Assembly: GCA_934309345.1 (NCBI GenBank)
Contig: CAKRDD010000018.1
Location: forward strand, 5,832-69,831
DNA length: 64,000 nt
Direction: 5' to 3'
Source of the DNA: an uncultured Mediterraneibacter sp.
GTDB lineage: Bacteria; Bacillota; Clostridia; Lachnospirales; Lachnospiraceae
Both the position numbers and the translations under genes were made by a program. The notes below the pieces were generated by a model that was not told the DNA's origin, made no database searches, and saw only the letters and a list, made by a program, of their open reading frames with translations. This document shows positions 3,759 through 63,941 of this stretch, in pieces (positions within the stretch are counted from its first letter, which is position 1; each line of letters starts with the position of its first letter).

Positions 3759-4238
3759 TTATTTTGTCATTATTTTTTGTCTTCTTTTATTTATGATTAA
3801 AAAAAGATTTCTGTCTGTTACCCATTTCTTAATGCGTTCGATTTCTTCATCCATATTTGGCTCATTCTCTGGTTTCCAGTCCTCTCTCATGCTTTTCAGT
3901 TCTTCTTCCCAGTCCGCTATATCATCATCAAGATAGCTCGCTTCTTCCTCGTCTGCTTCTTCTGGGTGTTCTTCCAGATACTTCTTTTCTTCCTTAGCGG
4001 TTTCGATATTGTCCATTGCGTTCAGATAGTCCTCTGGGTCATATCCCCAACAAAGGAGATGATTCAGAAGTGTAGGCTTTGGGATCATTCCAAACCAACA
4101 ACGCTCAAACCACTGGTCGGCATAATCTCTTTCATCACTTCCGTTGGAGTAAGTACCGCCCACCAAATCTCCGACAAAATTCTCTATCAGCTCTCCGATT
4201 GTTTCAATTTCTTCCTGCTGTTCTTCCTGACAACTCAT
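3759..4238 (-). CDS. Hypothetical, strongly acidic protein (159 aa), paralog of 1..646
   Basis: By my count about 44 D/E versus about 18 K/R residues, with runs such as EEHPEEADEEEASYLDDDIADWEEE. It shares a conserved core with the 1..646 product. I recognise no known family. Confidence 0.7.
   Translation of the reverse strand: MSCQEEQQEEIETIGELIENFVGDLVGGTYSNGSDERDYADQWFERCWFGMIPKPTLLNHLLCWGYDPEDYLNAMDNIETAKEEKKYLEEHPEEADEEEASYLDDDIADWEEELKSMREDWKPENEPNMDEEIERIKKWVTDRNLFLIINKRRQKIMTK
4057..4199. repeat. Second copy of the 143-bp near-identical block (see 381..523)
   Basis: Manual alignment with 381..523. Confidence 0.8.
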
Positions 4239-14417: not shown

Positions 14418-14863
14418 AGCTCATCCTCCTCACATTTCTCTAAAATCAGTTTCACTCCGGAAATTGCTGTTACTTTGGCAAGCGAATCTTTCTCAATCCT
14501 GTCCTTATCTGACTTACACCGTGCAGTCCATTCCTTCCCCTGTGCGATTGCAGTACCTGTCTGTGCAAAATTATCAACCGTCTCTGTTACCTTAACAACA
14601 CTTCCGATCAGTTCATCACAATTCGTCTTCACATGATGCACATTAACATACTTCGCTGCAAAAGGCCTGGTAAAGATCACAAGCACTGCCGAAACGACCA
14701 CGAATACAACAATCTGTATCACCGTCCCCGCTCCGGCAAGCGAACACAACAGCGCCGCCAGCGCACCGCCCGAAAACCAGATTGAAGTCAGACCAACCGT
14801 AGCAAGCTCAATAACCAAAAACACCACCATAAGCCCCAGCCACAAAAAAATCTCCCTCTCCAA
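14414..14863 (-). CDS. NfeD-family membrane protein (partner of the SPFH protein)
   Basis: Three N-terminal TM helices plus a C-terminal OB-like domain. It overlaps the SPFH gene by 4 nt (the classic nfeD-SPFH operon). The start codon is TTG with an aaggggg RBS. Confidence 0.85.
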   Translation of the reverse strand: MEREIFLWLGLMVVFLVIELATVGLTSIWFSGGALAALLCSLAGAGTVIQIVVFVVVSAVLVIFTRPFAAKYVNVHHVKTNCDELIGSVVKVTETVDNFAQTGTAIAQGKEWTARCKSDKDRIEKDSLAKVTAISGVKLILEKCEEDEL

Positions 14864-14994
14864 AAAATCCGCCCCCTTTCATTTTTGAACACACTGATTA
14901 TCCTAGTCAATAAGTATCCGTTTTCTTTCCTACTTTCAATTCTGTATTTCTGAGTGGATTCCTTCTCTTGAAATGAGCCCCCCTCTTTGAAAGT

Positions 14995-15200
14995 GTAAGC
15001 GAGAACAGTTCTGCTGTTGCCATGGGCACATGTAAGGCAGGAGCGTTCCGAATACACTTTGTTCAGTATGTTAGTAAGAGCCAGACAGGCACCACACACG
15101 GTAACTGTTCTGGCTCTTACGTTACATACTTTCAAAGGGATGAGGTAGAGCGAGCCGGTGCTCGTGGTAATAGCAGGACTGATCTTGCGACCATTCTGTA
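14995..15200 (+). ncRNA. Copy A of an unclassified structured-RNA-like repeat
   Basis: Nearly identical to 42593-42800. The closing helix 15001-15029 / 15158-15188 contains four G-U pairs that work only for a plus-strand transcript. The extended hairpin is 15056-15136. The invariant unpaired segments are 15028-15055 and 15137-15157. There is no ATG, RBS or conserved frame. Confidence 0.5.
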
Positions 15201-15240
15201 AAGTGCTCATTCCCCATACGAATCCCCTCAAAAATACAAA

Positions 15241-16869
15241 TTACTCACACTCGCGAATCTTCTTTCTAAGCGGCAATACCATCGCCGGAGATACAGACAA
15301 CTCATCCAGTCCCATCTTCAGGAACTCTTCTGTCAGTTCAAGGTCTGCGCCAAGCTCTCCACAGATTCCGATCCATTTTCCTTCTGCATGTGCATTATCA
15401 GCTGCCATCTTGATCATAGCAAGCACTGCCGGGTGATGTGGATCATAGAACTCATCCAGCGCAAGGTTCTGACGGTCAATCGCCAGTGTATACTGTGTCA
15501 GGTCATTTGTTCCGACACTGAAGAAATCTACTTCTTTCGCAAGCTCACGGCTCATCATAACAGATGCCGGAGTCTCGATCATGATACCAAGTTCTACGTC
15601 TTCCTTAAATGGAAGTCCTTCTTCTCTCAGCTCTGCCTTCACTTCTTCGATGATCTCTTTGATCTTACGAACTTCTTTTACAGAAATGATCATCGGGAAC
15701 ATAATGGAAAGGTTTCCATATACGGATGCACGGTAAAGTGCACGAAGCTGAGTCTTGAAGATCTCCGGTCTTGTCAGGCAGATACGGATTGCTCTGTATC
15801 CGAGTGCCGGGTTCTCTTCTTTTGCAAGATTGAAGTAATCAACCTGCTTGTCTGCTCCGATATCAAGTGTACGGATGATAACTTTCTTTCCGGCCATGCT
15901 TTCTACAACCTGTTTGTAAGCTGCAAACTGCTGGTCTTCTGTCGGATATGTACTGTTCTCAAGATAAAGGAACTCACTTCTGAACAGACCTACTCCGCCT
16001 GCATCATTCTTAAGAACTGCACCAAGATCAGATACATTACCAATGTTCGCATAAACATTGATCTTCTGTCCGCTCTTTGTTACATTCTCTTTTCCTTTGA
16101 GCTGGTTGAGAAGTTCTTTCTGCTCAAGGTCTTTCGCACGCTTCTCCTGCATCTTTGCAAGTGTCTCTTCATCCGGATCCACATAGAGTGTTCCCGTAAA
16201 TCCATCAATGATAGCCATCTCTCCGTCATATTTCGGGTTGAGAGCTTCTCCCATTCCGATCACAGCCGGAATGTTCATTGTTCTTGCAAGGATTGCTGTA
16301 TGAGAGTTGGAAGAACCATACATTGTAGCAAATCCGAGTACTTTCTCTTTATCAAGCTGTACTGTCTCACTTGGTGCAAGATCATCTGCCGCAACAATAC
16401 AAGGTTCTGTCATCTCACGTGTTCCATTGCTCACTCCGCAGAGAATATCAAGCACACGCTCGGAAACATCCTTCACGTCCGCTGCACGTCCCTGCATATA
16501 TGCATCATCCATAGATGCAAACATCTGTGCAAAGTTATCAGCTGTTGTTGAAACAGCATACTCTGCATTCACATTCTGTGTACGGATAATTCCTTCAATA
16601 GATTCCAGATAATCCAGATCATCAAGCATCATCTGGTGAATCTCAAAGATCATGGCGTTGGCCTCACCTACATCTTCAATGGCTTTGTCGTAGAGAGCTT
16701 TCAGCTGGTCGATTGCTGTGTTCTTAGCCTCTTCGAATCTCTTCCATTCTGCATCCACATCATCTACATGCGTTCTTCTGATCACCTTTTCGTTTCTCTT
16801 ATAGAACATCAGTTTTCCAATGGATACCCCACCGAATACGCTTTTCCCTTCAATCGTTATCATATACAC
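15241..16869 (-). CDS. ptsI: Phosphoenolpyruvate-protein phosphotransferase (PTS enzyme I)
   Basis: GSSNSHTAILARTMNIPAV contains the phospho-histidine. FFSVGTNDLTQY marks the PEP-utilising domain. Confidence 0.96.
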   Translation of the reverse strand: MYMITIEGKSVFGGVSIGKLMFYKRNEKVIRRTHVDDVDAEWKRFEEAKNTAIDQLKALYDKAIEDVGEANAMIFEIHQMMLDDLDYLESIEGIIRTQNVNAEYAVSTTADNFAQMFASMDDAYMQGRAADVKDVSERVLDILCGVSNGTREMTEPCIVAADDLAPSETVQLDKEKVLGFATMYGSSNSHTAILARTMNIPAVIGMGEALNPKYDGEMAIIDGFTGTLYVDPDEETLAKMQEKRAKDLEQKELLNQLKGKENVTKSGQKINVYANIGNVSDLGAVLKNDAGGVGLFRSEFLYLENSTYPTEDQQFAAYKQVVESMAGKKVIIRTLDIGADKQVDYFNLAKEENPALGYRAIRICLTRPEIFKTQLRALYRASVYGNLSIMFPMIISVKEVRKIKEIIEEVKAELREEGLPFKEDVELGIMIETPASVMMSRELAKEVDFFSVGTNDLTQYTLAIDRQNLALDEFYDPHHPAVLAMIKMAADNAHAEGKWIGICGELGADLELTEEFLKMGLDELSVSPAMVLPLRKKIRECE

Positions 16870-40691: not shown

Positions 40692-42182
40692 ATGCTTTAC
40701 GATGCAATCAAAAAATTAGTACAATATGGAATCAATACCGGAATCACTCCGGAATCTGAACGGATTTATACAACTAATCTTCTGCTGGATCTGTTCCACG
40801 AAGATAACTATGAAGACGTTGACTGTAACCTGGACAATCTCGTTCTGGAAGATATTCTTGCAGAACTTTTAGATATCGCCGCAGAGCGCGGAATCATTGA
40901 AAACAGCATCGGCTACCGTGATCTGTTTGACACAAAGCTGATGAATACACTGATGCCACGCCCATCACAGATCCAGCAGACTTTCTGGGAAAAATACAAA
41001 GTTTCTCCGGAGACAGCAACTGATTATTATTACAAATTAAGCCAGGACAGTGATTATATCCGCAGATACCGCATTGCCAGAGACCGCAAATGGACGGTTG
41101 ACACAGAATATGGCACTTTGGATATTACGATCAATCTTTCCAAACCAGAGAAAGATCCAAAAGCGATTGCAGCAGCAGGAAAAGCAAAATCCTCTTCCTA
41201 TCCAAAATGTCAGCTTTGCATGGAAAATGAGGGCTATGCAGGACGCCTTGATCATCCGGCTCGTGAGAACCACAGAATCATCCCGATCACAATTCAGGAT
41301 AATCCTTGGGGATTCCAGTACTCCCCTTATGTATACTACAACGAGCACTGTATCGTATTTAACGGACAGCATGTTCCAATGAAGATCGATCGTAATGCAT
41401 TTGAAAAGCTTTTTGATTTCATCAAACTTTTCCCACACTACTTCCTTGGATCCAATGCAGACCTTCCGATCGTTGGCGGTTCTATCTTAAGCCATGATCA
41501 TTTCCAGGGCGGAAATTATACTTTCGCAATGGCTAAAGCTCCGATCATTGAGCACTTTACTGTAAAAGGTTATGAAGATGTAACAGCCGGTATTGTAAAA
41601 TGGCCACTCTCTGTTATCCGTCTCCAGAGCAAAGAAGTAAAACCTCTGATTGATCTGGCTGAGCACATTTTAAACACATGGAGATCCTATACAGATGAAG
41701 ATGCTTTCATCTTCGCTGAGACAGACGACACGCCGCACAATACGATCACACCAATTGCAAGAAAGCGTGGAGACCTTTACGAACTTGACCTGACATTAAG
41801 AAACAATATTACAACAGAAGAACACCCACTTGGTGTTTATCATCCACACGCGAAGCTGCACCATATCAAGAAAGAAAACATCGGTCTTATTGAAGTAATG
41901 GGACTTGCTGTTCTTCCTGCACGACTGAAAGGTGAGATGGAACTTCTGAGAGATTACATCCTGACAGGAAAAGATATCCGCAGCAATGAGCAGATTGCAA
42001 AACACGCTGACTGGGTAGATGAATTCCTTCCAAATTATTCTTCCATCACAGAAGATAATGTTGAAGAGATCCTTCAGCAGGAAGTCGGAAAAGTATTCTG
42101 CGAAGTACTCGAAGACGCCGGGGTTTATAAATGTGATGAAAAAGGACTGGAGGCATTCCATCGTTTTGTAGGGGTGTTGTAA
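40692..42182 (+). CDS. galT: UDP-glucose--hexose-1-phosphate uridylyltransferase (type 2, ~500 aa)
   Basis: Length and motifs are those of the Gram-positive GalT type, including GGSILSHDHFQGG. It lies directly downstream of galK. Confidence 0.94.
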   Translation: MLYDAIKKLVQYGINTGITPESERIYTTNLLLDLFHEDNYEDVDCNLDNLVLEDILAELLDIAAERGIIENSIGYRDLFDTKLMNTLMPRPSQIQQTFWEKYKVSPETATDYYYKLSQDSDYIRRYRIARDRKWTVDTEYGTLDITINLSKPEKDPKAIAAAGKAKSSSYPKCQLCMENEGYAGRLDHPARENHRIIPITIQDNPWGFQYSPYVYYNEHCIVFNGQHVPMKIDRNAFEKLFDFIKLFPHYFLGSNADLPIVGGSILSHDHFQGGNYTFAMAKAPIIEHFTVKGYEDVTAGIVKWPLSVIRLQSKEVKPLIDLAEHILNTWRSYTDEDAFIFAETDDTPHNTITPIARKRGDLYELDLTLRNNITTEEHPLGVYHPHAKLHHIKKENIGLIEVMGLAVLPARLKGEMELLRDYILTGKDIRSNEQIAKHADWVDEFLPNYSSITEDNVEEILQQEVGKVFCEVLEDAGVYKCDEKGLEAFHRFVGVL

Positions 42183-42237
42183 TTTGTTGAACTTGGATTC
42201 ATTATCACTCAAATAAGTACTTTTTAGTAAAACAGAC

Positions 42238-42450
42238 GTGAGGAAGCCACTGTATTGCATCGGACACCGGCCCGCTTTACCTCATCCCTTTGACAATCTG
42301 TAACGAAAAAGCCAGAGCACTCACCGTGTGTGATTCGTGTCTGGCTTTTTCTAACAGATTCTGCAAAGTGTATTCGGAACGCTCCTGCCTTAAATGTGTC
42401 CTCAACAATACAGTGGCTCCCTCACTCGGCTTTTCAAATGAGTAAGTGCT
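42238..42450 (-). ncRNA. Copy C (diverged, inverted) of the structured-RNA-like repeat
   Basis: On the minus strand the two unpaired cores are conserved (acatttaaggcaggagcgttccgaatacacttt and tcaaagggatgaggtaaagcgggccggtg). The closing helix has an unrelated sequence but is still fully complementary (plus-strand 42238-42267 with 42396-42425). Confidence 0.5.
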
Positions 42451-42498
42451 ATTCCAAATGAAATGAATCCAGAAAACAAAATATGAACTTAAAGTGTT

Positions 42499-42544
42499 AA
42501 GGAAATGGGAACGCAATCAACTACGATGGTCTTCCCATTTCCTT
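42499..42544. repeat. Central 13-bp-stem palindrome between the inverted repeat copies C and B
   Basis: aaggaaatgggaa (42499-42511) pairs with ttcccatttcctt (42532-42544). A second inverted pair flanks it: aatccagaaaacaaa (42466-42480) and tttgttttctggatt (42543-42557). Confidence 0.7.
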
Positions 42545-42592
42545 TGTTTTCTGGATTTGTCTGATTGGAATTAAATATCTCGTTTGGAATAT

Positions 42593-42800
42593 GTAAGCAA
42601 GGACAGTCCTGCTGTTGCCACGAGCACATGTAAGGCAGGAGCGTTCCGAATACACTTTGTTCAGTATGTTAGTAAGAGCCAAAACAGGCACCACACACGG
42701 TAACTGTTCTGGCTCTTACGTTACATACTTTCAAAGGGATGAGGTAAAGCGGGCCGGTGCTCGTGGTAATAGCAGGGCTGGCCTTGCGACACCATTCTAT
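42593..42800 (+). ncRNA. Copy B of the structured-RNA-like repeat
   Basis: Differs from copy A at about a dozen positions by manual alignment. The closing helix is 42601-42629 / 42758-42783. It ends 18 nt before the convergent ilvA stop. Confidence 0.5.
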
Positions 42801-42817
42801 AGACTGTTTAATACCAA

Positions 42818-44032
42818 TTAGTACAGTTTCGCACTGATCAGTTTTGGTCTGAATCCTGCTTTATCGAGTGTATCGAGAATCTTTTTCTTATGATCTGTTC
42901 CGAATGCTTCCATTGTGATACGAAGCTCTACTGCTGCGTTTCTGTTTGTGCTTACAAACTGGTTATGTTCCAGTTTAATGATATTACCCTGTACGTCTGC
43001 GACTGTCTGTGCCACGCGTGCGAGTTCACCCGGCTTATCCGGAAGGAGTACGGATACGGAGAAGATACGGTCTCTCTGAATCAGTCCGTGCTGTACGATA
43101 GAGGACATTGTGATTACATCCATATTTCCACCACTTAATACACAGACTACTTTCTTTCCTTTGATGTCCATCTGCTTTAATGCAGCTACGGAAAGAAGTC
43201 CTGAATTTTCTACGATCATCTTATGATTCTCTACCATATCAAGAAATGCACCAATCAATTCATCATCTTCTACAAGAAGTACTTCATCTACATTTTCTTT
43301 CACATATGGGAGGATCTTATCTCCAACTTCTTTTACAGCTGTTCCATCTGCGATTGTATTCGCTGAAGGAAGTTCTACCGGCTCTCCTGCTTTCAGGGCT
43401 GCTGTCATGCTGGCTGCCTCTGACGGCTCTACACCAACTACTTTGATCTTTGGATTGAGCATCTTGGCAAGTGTGGAAACACCTGTGATCAGTCCGCCGC
43501 CACCGATCGGTGCAAGGATATAATCTACAGTCGGGAGTTCCTGAACAATCTCCATTGCGATTGTTCCCTGACCCGTAGCGACATCAAGGTCATTGAATGG
43601 ATGAACAAATGTATATCCGTTCTCTTCTGCAAGTTTGCACGCATGTGCGTAAGCATCATCATAAACATCTCCGTGAAGTACTACATCTGCTCCAAAGCTT
43701 TTTGTACGGTTTACTTTGATCAGCGGAGTAACTGTAGGCATAACGATCGTAGCTTTGCATCCAAACTGTTTTGCTGCAAATGCAACGCCCTGTGCATGAT
43801 TTCCTGCTGATGCTGTGATCAGTCCACGGCTTCTTTCTTCGTCTGTCAGTGTGCTGATCTTGTAGTATGCACCACGGATCTTATAAGCTCCTGTGTGCTG
43901 CATATTCTCCGGTTTTAAATAGACCTTTGCTCCTGTCTGTGCACTTAAGTATTCACTGTAAATAAGTTTTGTAGGATTTGTTACCTTTTTTACCAGTTCG
44001 CTAGCTTCTTCAAATTTCTCTAATGTCATCAT
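42818..44032 (-). CDS. ilvA: Threonine ammonia-lyase (threonine dehydratase), ~400-aa form with one C-terminal ACT-like domain
   Basis: HTGAYKIRGAY contains the PLP lysine. Also SAGNHAQGVA and GGGGLI. Confidence 0.92.
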   Translation of the reverse strand: MMTLEKFEEASELVKKVTNPTKLIYSEYLSAQTGAKVYLKPENMQHTGAYKIRGAYYKISTLTDEERSRGLITASAGNHAQGVAFAAKQFGCKATIVMPTVTPLIKVNRTKSFGADVVLHGDVYDDAYAHACKLAEENGYTFVHPFNDLDVATGQGTIAMEIVQELPTVDYILAPIGGGGLITGVSTLAKMLNPKIKVVGVEPSEAASMTAALKAGEPVELPSANTIADGTAVKEVGDKILPYVKENVDEVLLVEDDELIGAFLDMVENHKMIVENSGLLSVAALKQMDIKGKKVVCVLSGGNMDVITMSSIVQHGLIQRDRIFSVSVLLPDKPGELARVAQTVADVQGNIIKLEHNQFVSTNRNAAVELRITMEAFGTDHKKKILDTLDKAGFRPKLISAKLY

Positions 44033-54036: not shown

Positions 54037-54200
54037 GATTTAATGCCACCTTTCTTTTTATCTCACTTGGCTCTATTATAACGCAATCGTTTTTTGTATA
54101 CAAGTCATTTTATGTGCATTTTCAAATACAATCCGCACTTTGTAACAGGATATTTGTAAGATTGTTACAGTTTTATCAAACATTGTCTTTTTCCAGAAAC

Positions 54201-54250
54201 AATAAGAGCCGGAACAGACACCACTCATGGTAACTATTCTGGCTCTTATT
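54201..54250. repeat. Stand-alone copy of the hairpin module found inside repeat copies A and B, placed where the tmcAL terminator should be
   Basis: aataagagccggaacag acaccactcatggtaa ctattctggctcttatt matches taagagccagacag gcaccacacacggtaa ctgttctggctctta at 15075-15119, including the loop. It starts 6 nt after the TAG stop at 54256. Confidence 0.65.
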
Positions 54251-54255
54251 AAAAT

Positions 54256-63858: not shown

Positions 63859-63941
63859 TGCCGCTGGCCGGACTCGAACCGGCACGGCTACTAACCGCTT
63901 GATTTTGAGTCAAGTGCGTCTGCCAATTCCGCCACAGCGGC
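63859..63941 (-). tRNA. tRNA-Leu (anticodon CAA), type II with a long variable arm, no encoded CCA
   Basis: The minus strand reads gccgctgtggcggaattggcagacgcacttgactCAAaatcaagcggttagtagccgtgccggttcgagtccggccagcggca. The acceptor stem is GCCGCTG/CAGCGGC, the anticodon stem is cttga/tcaag around loop ctCAAaa, and the T-arm is gccgg-ttcgagt-ccggc. Confidence 0.93.

Follow-up and report, generated by a model that had tools for sequence, protein, structure and literature searches.

A palindromic intergenic repeat of Mediterraneibacter built around a terminator-like hairpin

What is a segment of about 200 nt that recurs in closely similar form in a bacterial genome and folds like a structured RNA? 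The window considered here, a stretch of 64,000 nt from an uncultured Mediterraneibacter species, contains such a segment next to ptsI (copy A) and a close relative of it in a second intergenic region (copy B). The original prediction saw in these copies an unclassified family of structured RNA elements lying in unrelated contexts, with a discrete plus-strand transcript of about 190 nt as the product. We followed the segment through the window, through genomes of related species and through metagenomes, and asked which kind of element it represents.

Copies in the window and extent of the family

Copies A and B are aligned by a repeat finder in two blocks, 14986-15083 with 42584-42681 at 92% and 15085-15191 with 42684-42790 at 95% identity. 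The blocks are displaced by 1 nt relative to each other, and about 13 substitutions and one indel separate the copies overall, which agrees with the dozen or so differences counted originally. A third copy (C) lies on the minus strand, where 42253-42401 is 82% complementary to 15024-15172. A covariance model of the core region (R1, built from 51 representative sequences) recovers exactly three full copies in the window, with 133-138 bits and E values of about 1e-33 and on the strands that had been named for them, as well as a partial match to the distal hairpin alone at 54202-54251.

The conserved unit, or module, extends beyond the approximately 200 nt first proposed: it reaches about 300 nt and possesses terminal inverted repeats, whose ends (TTTGTTGAACTTGGATTC / GAATCCAAGTTCAACAAA and AATTCGTGTTTGTT.. 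/ ..AACAAACACGAATT) co-vary. Between the TTTGTT..GGATT and AATCC..AACAAA termini it comprises two long arms, which pair as P1 and P2, two small conserved asymmetric loops and, in mid-unit, a further hairpin (P3); a diverged module folds end-to-end as a single rod.

Copy A is a complete solo module on the plus strand (14947-15241), as delimited by a profile search (nhmmer, 14949-15241), the covariance model (15022-15164, 136.8 bits) and the predicted fold. Its 5' inverted-repeat end is TTCTGAGTGGATTC, and its 3' end, ..AAAAATACAAAT, adjoins the TAA stop codon of ptsI (15241-15243). The genes that were expected to flank this copy, ptsI and nfeD, were both found, on the minus strand. On the 5' side of copy A lies a leader region (14890-14946, plus strand) with a TAGTCAATAAG box and, adjoining the inverted repeat, a TCTGTATTT box. 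Alignments reveal that this leader is homologous to the centre of composite elements, and a segment of the same type sits between the paired modules of two other loci (L125 and L064).

Copy C is a minus-strand module at 42183-42479 (nhmmer 42182-42479; covariance model 42261-42403, 137.6 bits), and its 3' end, TTTGTTGAACTTGGATTC on the plus strand, comes directly after the TAA stop codon of galT (42180-42182; ORF 40692-42182). Copy B is a plus-strand module at 42544-42817 (nhmmer 42544-42807; covariance model 42620-42763, 133.1 bits), whose 3' end adjoins the TAA stop codon (42818-42820) of a PALP/ACT-domain gene (ORF 42818-44032). The two are separated by a central hairpin at 42499-42544, to which no strand is assigned and which reads AAGGAAATGGGAA..TTCCCATTTCCTT, then TGTTTTCT; the covariance model gives weak matches over the same interval.

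Some side observations concern this centre and other repeated sequences of the window. The C/B centre occurs in two unrelated-looking versions among strains, on the one hand the hairpin with a 13-bp stem that is found in the window and on the other hand, in L125 (6900-6990) and L064, a longer segment that contains a GTCGATAAA box and is also found ahead of solo copy A (14890-14946). A TCGATAA(A/G) box is kept across subtypes at a similar distance from the 5' end of the module. A separate direct repeat of 222 nt (305-526 and 3981-4202, 80% identity, 3.7 kb apart) has its second copy inside a minus-strand ORF (3759-4238) and is probably paralogous coding sequence.

Scanning the GTDB species representatives with an exact 20-mer from the core matched 27 loci, of which 26 are real; a locus in an Oscillospiraceae genome (L019) was rejected as a chance match of the 20-mer. 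[Ruminococcus] (Mediterraneibacter) faecis JCM 15917, a close match of the window, has three loci, Candidatus M. intestinigallinarum and Candidatus M. surreyensis have about 11-12 each, and another Eubacteriales MAG has one. In metagenomes a two-block pattern identified at least 120 loci, mostly from the human gut. Profile searches of the Mediterraneibacter genomes and the metagenome matches listed yielded 166 complete modules. At 92% identity these fall into 51 clusters, and several clearly diverged subtypes are among them. A blastn search of plasmid and phage collections with the B/C composite returned no match, and a viral origin was likewise rejected, four IMG/VR matches to a 19-mer being chance matches inside a coding region. 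A literature search by sequence string and by topic retrieved no description of the repeat, and the motif is absent from the first 200 of the supplementary files that accompany Fremin & Bhatt 2021.

In the two Candidatus species the usual form of the element is a composite of about 700 bp, consisting of a minus-strand module, a central hairpin between an A-run and a T-run, and a plus-strand module. Copy C, the hairpin at 42499-42544 and copy B show the same layout, in which the window hairpin is the counterpart of the A-run/hairpin/T-run centre. Units are found solo or as inverted pairs, the 5' ends of a pair facing a further terminator-like hairpin and the pair filling the whole gap between convergent genes; composites are flush with stop codons on both sides. 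With ORFs called mechanically, the 3' ends of about 104 of 150 modules are found at -7 to +27 nt relative to a converging ORF's stop codon, whereas about 30% of the modules are not adjacent to a converging stop codon. The neighbours of the copies include ptsI, nfeD, galT and genes for a PALP/ACT enzyme, an SRP54-family GTPase and SMC. The contexts of the copies, previously regarded as unrelated, are thus alike, because the copies abut stop codons. A rule by which the module would always be antisense to its neighbour was dropped, because a pair by its very construction exposes the 3' end of a module on each side, and because solo copies located between genes of the same direction are too few (two antisense, one sense).

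Fold and strand preference

The plus strand of copy A has a minimum free energy (MFE) of -103.5 kcal/mol (z = -9.7) and the minus strand one of -75.2 kcal/mol. Both helices of the original prediction, the closing helix and a hairpin at 15056-15136, are present in the MFE fold at the coordinates proposed for them. The closing helix P1 (plus strand, 15011-15029 paired with 15158-15176) covaries in 17 of its 18 pairs, and a direct reading of copies A and B confirms the changes that had been described within it: U.G to C-G, G.U to A-U, U-A to U.G and one double change from A-U to G-C.

Fold statistics were obtained from alignment A2, which consists of the 51 cluster representatives. RNAalifold predicts 55 pairs, and in 42 of them compensatory changes are found, i.e. 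changes on both sides that keep the pair. Standard pairs make up 95.2% of the cells, compared to 74.0% in column shuffles and 39-49% if the partners are slid by 1-3 columns, and the covariation score of 0.626 (0.231 when shuffled) was attained in none of 500 shuffles; counts of cells nevertheless overstate the number of independent events because many metagenome copies are orthologues at the same sites, an overcounting that the slid-partner control and the several subtypes lessen without removing. With such compensatory changes, the fold of the repeat family is very well supported, as the original prediction had anticipated.

The 5' core segment ACATGTAAGGCAGGAGCGTTCCGAATACA (15028-15056, plus strand) consists of near-invariant columns in alignments A2 and A3, and the 3' core segment GGATGAGGTAGAGCGAGCCG (15138-15157, plus strand) is delimited by alignment, fold and covariation. 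CCGAA (15048-15052) in the former and TGAGG (15141-15145) in the latter are the two halves of a tandem G.A (5'-CGAA / 5'-UGAG), which together with small bulges and a GGC/GCC clamp is a constant feature of the core. A second constant small loop, UGUUAG / CGUUACA, is located at the base of the distal hairpin, and the spacing between the two core motifs is always 91-99 nt. The core does not, however, consist of two strictly invariant and wholly unpaired segments as had been claimed: the 3' segment of copy A differs from that of copy C (ACATTTAAGG), and several core positions pair and covary (columns 117:209, 119:207 and 121:206).

A search of the whole window against Rfam 15 at the gathering threshold yields only a tRNA; an 83-nt tRNA gene (59.6 bits) is located at 63859-63941 on the minus strand. 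At E <= 10 both regions return only sub-threshold matches to unrelated eukaryotic or plant families, mostly miRNA-hairpin models, far below gathering scores. Within Rfam the element thus matches no known RNA family, including 6S, hammerhead, hairpin ribozyme, HEARO/omega RNAs, raiA and Clostridiales-1, as originally stated. Two further candidates were rejected by inspection of their topology and are likewise absent from the Rfam matches: the hammerhead, for which one hairpin is present where two are needed, and the K-turn, for which the 3-nt bulge adjoining the G.A pairs is lacking.

The strand named by the original prediction folds better in 46 of 47 copies, with a mean difference of 15.8 kcal/mol, and the window copies score 133-138 bits on this strand versus 17-18 bits on the reverse, whereby the consensus structure was derived on the same strand that the comparison then favours. 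At paired positions G.U exceeds A.C by 169 to 59 on a structure derived from the named strand, and by 58 to 43 on one derived from the opposite strand. The argument from G-U pairs for the plus strand holds in its direction, but less so in its force: the strand asymmetry is real but moderate, because the ratio varies from about 1.35:1 to 2.9:1 with the strand used to derive the structure.

The central hairpin, its alleles and rearrangements

P3 (15074-15119 in copy A, plus strand) is a distal hairpin that is terminator-like on both strands, as seen in repeat family D4, in the folds and in an allele without arms. This allele belongs to a series of ten contigs that encode exactly the PtsI of the window and in which the ptsI-nfeD spacer occurs in four states. 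A full module is present in the window, L162, L165, L169 and L170, and as a variant in L163, L166 and L167; L168 has only the (left) arm next to ptsI, and L171 possesses only the other (right) arm. L164 has no arms at all, and a few bases after the ptsI stop follow GAAAAAGCCGAAACAG..CTGTTTCGGCTTTTTC and then the upstream region of nfeD. The hairpin of L164 is the P3 of the module; it is bordered by an A-tract and a U-tract and folds equally well on either strand. An A5-stem-U5 arrangement is found in this L164/T2 allele and in the P3 of the R-type, and the P3 of copy A itself is followed by CUAACAUAC, a poor U-tract. A simple terminator scan of the window called neither P3 nor the central hairpin, owing to its loop limit of 8 nt.

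At 54203-54248 the P3 family has another member, a bare hairpin that is not assigned to a strand, shares 87% identity with the P3 of copy B and resembles an arm-less terminator. A distance of 8 nt separates it from the preceding stop (54256), that of a minus-strand ORF of 428 aa; the hairpin is upstream of the next minus-strand gene, and an inverted-repeat-like remnant, CCAGAAACAA, adjoins it at 54193-54202. This hairpin may be the relic of a module that lost its arms, or a member of the terminator family that underlies the modules.

Judged by its sequence, P3 has the form of a bidirectional intrinsic terminator. The L164 allele and the bare hairpin at 54203-54248 imply that the centre of the structured element is the terminator-like hairpin of the gene, whereas the arms can be dispensed with and separated from each other. 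A crossover inside the hairpin that full and arm-less alleles have in common is a simple explanation for the half-modules; the arm-less alleles could be either ancestral or derived. At the ptsI site, strains whose PtsI is identical have two arms, one or none, but none of them represents a clean empty site, since every allele contains the central hairpin.

A reading frame also crosses the element. On the minus strand of the window a 147-aa ORF (14788-15231) runs straight through copy A, and in L162, L169 and L170 a 140-aa gene without a Pfam match was called across this copy. The copy-A ORF is almost certainly spurious and caused by the repeat, since it vanishes in the alleles lacking arms. No conserved reading frame is apparent in the alignments, which carry many 1-3-nt indels.

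How do these alleles bear on a free-standing gene for a structured non-coding RNA, with a transcript of about 190-300 nt per module, loops that bind a protein or ligand or are catalytic, and copies that represent paralogous genes? The very strong covariation would suit such a gene, as would the better folding of the named strand, its covariance-model scores, the excess of G.U over A.C, the absence of a match in Rfam and a tandem G.A core that makes sense on the named strand only. Furthermore, a -10-like box (TATGAAT / TGTAAT / TGTATT) adjoins the 5' end in all types. It is without a -35, however; simple scans of the window copies found neither a sigma-70-type promoter nor an end terminator, and promoter scans of the copies gave matches at or below chance. 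Instead of a promoter and a terminator of its own that would delimit the structure, the element has only the terminator-like hairpin in the middle of the fold, which in either direction would truncate the RNA. Among strains whose PtsI is identical, one arm or the other may be missing on its own. The orientation of the copies, which either face the 3' ends of converging genes or run antisense to the genes on both sides, speaks against a gene as well, as do terminal inverted repeats, inverted pairing and in-place inversion. The data fit an RNA gene poorly, because a transcript from either side meets the terminator-like hairpin before the second arm, because the arms are separable and because delimiting signals are missing. 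We therefore consider this explanation unlikely, and the discrete plus-strand RNA of about 190 nt is a part of the original prediction that is not supported.

Two outward-facing promoter-like matches may be recorded here, ATGACA-18-CATAAT in L010 (3747-3776) and TTATCA-17-GATAAT in L125 (6622-6650, minus strand). They are located 20-40 nt inside the 3' end of the module and point into the 3' end of the neighbour gene, and their number equals the chance expectation. A CATAAT / CATGAT box is kept in L-type copies.

The B/C site is likewise polymorphic. Among ten contigs encoding an identical 404-aa PALP/ACT protein, five have the B/C pair in the order of the window, four have it inverted relative to both flanking genes, and one carries a chimeric allele, a single module in which the two outer arms are joined within P3. 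Other metagenome contigs show the same inversion, or deletions that leave copy B solo, with junctions in the inverted-repeat copies. Two further in-place inversions are found between the two Candidatus species, and at another M. faecis locus some strains have a solo and others a paired element, with flanks that are 98-99% identical. Looking for empty sites among the fetched loci gave only this solo/paired polymorphism. Frequent rearrangement is evident from these alleles, comprising the loss of one or both arms around a retained hairpin, the collapse of a pair to a solo module and the inversion of whole pairs. In addition, among L004, L023 and L025 of the Candidatus Mediterraneibacter species, one composite of one species has its left flank in common with one composite of the other species and its right flank in common with a different one, which suggests that recombination between scattered copies of the element has rearranged the chromosome.

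No direct repeat that could represent a target-site duplication flanks the aligned ends of 17 composites, the common AATT being part of the inverted repeat, and neither in the window nor in about 1.2 Mb of fetched loci was an autonomous element with the same inverted repeats, or a transposase, detected. Mobility is accordingly inferred from dispersal and polymorphism only, as parent element, transposase and target-site duplication were not found. The original prediction was meant to fail if its copies proved to be part of a repeat or mobile element, and the family comes close to that description. A replication-strand explanation of the IS200/IS605 kind was rejected because the modules of a pair lie on opposite strands.

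Alternatively, the module might be a site of single-stranded DNA recombination or transposition, the folded strand being recognised by a recombinase or HUH-type enzyme encoded elsewhere, comparable to attC or REP/RAYT; such recognition would then account for the covariation and the conserved unpaired bases. This hypothesis is consistent with a fold that is kept while stem sequences vary, with conserved extrahelical or mismatched bases, with the attC-like position right after stop codons, with junctions of inversions, deletions and the chimera at the inverted repeats or in P3, and with the lack of a target-site duplication. However, no recombinase or HUH gene was found near any copy, the neighbours being housekeeping genes; the ends are GTTTGTT..AACAAAC instead of RYYYAAC..GTTRRRY; in length the unit exceeds attC or REP 2-5 times; the genes on either side retain their synteny and are not cassettes; and no dedicated enzyme is needed for the rearrangements, which homologous recombination within palindromic repeats accounts for. 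We regard such a site as distinctly improbable. Less plausible still is a programmed inverton, in which the paired element would flip between convergent genes and change which transcript terminates or reads through: both orientations do occur at comparable frequency (5 vs 4) in contigs with an identical neighbouring protein, the terminal inverted repeats of the inverted allele are perfect over 18 bp, some alleles have an asymmetric centre and there are two further inter-species inversions, but inverted and standard alleles differ by 2-5% in their flanking DNA and therefore come from different lineages instead of one switching population, a recombinase gene is not adjacent, and solo copies such as A would be unable to switch.

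Interpretation and comparison with known systems

The observations are best accommodated by a dispersed, recombinationally active, non-coding palindromic repeat around a terminator hairpin. We assign a probability of about one half to the explanation that the 200-nt segment is the core of a terminator-centred palindromic non-coding repeat of Mediterraneibacter, about 300 bp in length and of the MITE or REP/BIME kind. The family is new and well supported; its broad kind, intergenic palindromic repeats, is known, and its terminator-centred architecture and conserved loops are unusual.

From sequence features, P3 is predicted to terminate the transcript of the adjacent gene, in which case the element would supply or wrap the terminator. 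The arms would pair only in read-through RNA or in single-stranded DNA, and the invariant loops could be the recognition site of a trans-acting protein, either an enzyme that spreads or recombines the element or a protein that binds or processes RNA. The element may have spread as a non-autonomous transposable element, or through recombination that was seeded in terminator hairpins belonging to its own family.

Several features count against the repeat explanation. Invariant asymmetric loops, covarying helices and the spacing of 91-99 nt are more typical of functional RNAs than of MITEs. A target-site duplication and a parent element were not found in the sequences searched, about 30% of the modules are situated away from converging stops, the named strand folds better in all but one of the copies compared, and the U-tract of the copy-A P3 is poor. 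Invariant loops at fixed spacing, covarying stems and a preferred folding strand are unusual for such repeats, and from them we infer a folded single strand that is recognised by a protein; the asymmetric loops with their tandem G.A core are probably the recognition site. It is possible, although we would advance it only tentatively, that the core (the tandem G.A with bulges and the UGUUAG / CGUUACA loop, 91-99 nt apart around the terminator hairpin) is a functional single-strand module recognised by a dedicated protein, be it as RNA or as ssDNA. If so, it would represent either a class of terminator-associated structured RNA not described before from gut Lachnospiraceae, or a new mechanism by which mobile elements home to intrinsic terminators and wrap them.

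The repeat is of interest for several reasons. Mediterraneibacter faecis and its relatives are common commensals of the human and animal gut. For genome annotation, the repeat occupies the space that follows many housekeeping genes, whose terminators it probably provides, and gene callers turn it into spurious 'hypothetical proteins' such as the 140-aa product called across copy A. Between strains, the element is a hot spot of structural variation with inversions, loss of arms and changes between the paired and the solo state. Should the loops be a recognition site of a protein or ligand, the family would offer a tractable case of a palindromic repeat that becomes or wraps a transcription terminator, as well as a new RNA or ssDNA motif supported by covariation; otherwise it is one more family of intergenic palindromic repeats.

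Among known systems, bacterial MITEs (ERIC/IRU, Correia/NEMIS, RUP, BOX, YPAL) fold as long RNA hairpins (PMC2229807, PMC3184786). MITE-type repeats are co-transcribed with neighbouring genes, and their RNA hairpins affect the neighbouring transcripts (PMC2229807); YPAL inserts at or beside regions of dyad symmetry (PMC2229807, PMC3184786). The repeat of the window shares with MITEs that it is small, non-coding and intergenic, that it is dispersed in many copies per genome and that it possesses terminal inverted repeats. In contrast to MITEs, it measures about 300 bp and not <200 bp, TA ends or a target-site duplication were not seen and no parent IS is known. Furthermore, it is built around a terminator-like hairpin, forms inverted-pair (foldback) composites, and has strongly conserved asymmetric internal loops and stems that covary across diverged subfamilies.

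With REP/BIME elements (REPIN) the repeat has in common palindromic units in alternating orientation, a position behind genes and between convergent genes, and, as proposed here, strand-specific recognition of a hairpin. REP/BIME elements are linked to 3'-end formation and mRNA stability. REP sequences, however, are proteobacterial, 20-40 nt long and GC-rich, with a GTAG tetranucleotide and a RAYT gene, whereas the unit described here belongs to Bacillota, measures about 300 nt and lacks the GTAG signature, and no RAYT gene was found in the fetched loci.

Integron attC sites resemble the module in that a folded single strand would be the functional form, that stems covary around conserved unpaired bases and that the site starts at or just after the upstream stop. 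The repeat differs from attC, as it is associated with neither an integrase nor a cassette array, its end sequences (GTTTGTT..AACAAAC) are of opposite polarity, and it comprises about 300 nt compared with 57-141 nt.

To bidirectional intrinsic terminators, finally, P3 and the central hairpin correspond in their A-tract, GC-containing stem and U-tract and in their location a few nt after stop codons. Ordinary terminators of this type are without inverted arms of 100 nt with conserved loops and do not constitute a homologous multi-copy family; the arm-less allele at ptsI, on the other hand, is exactly a hairpin of the bidirectional-terminator type.
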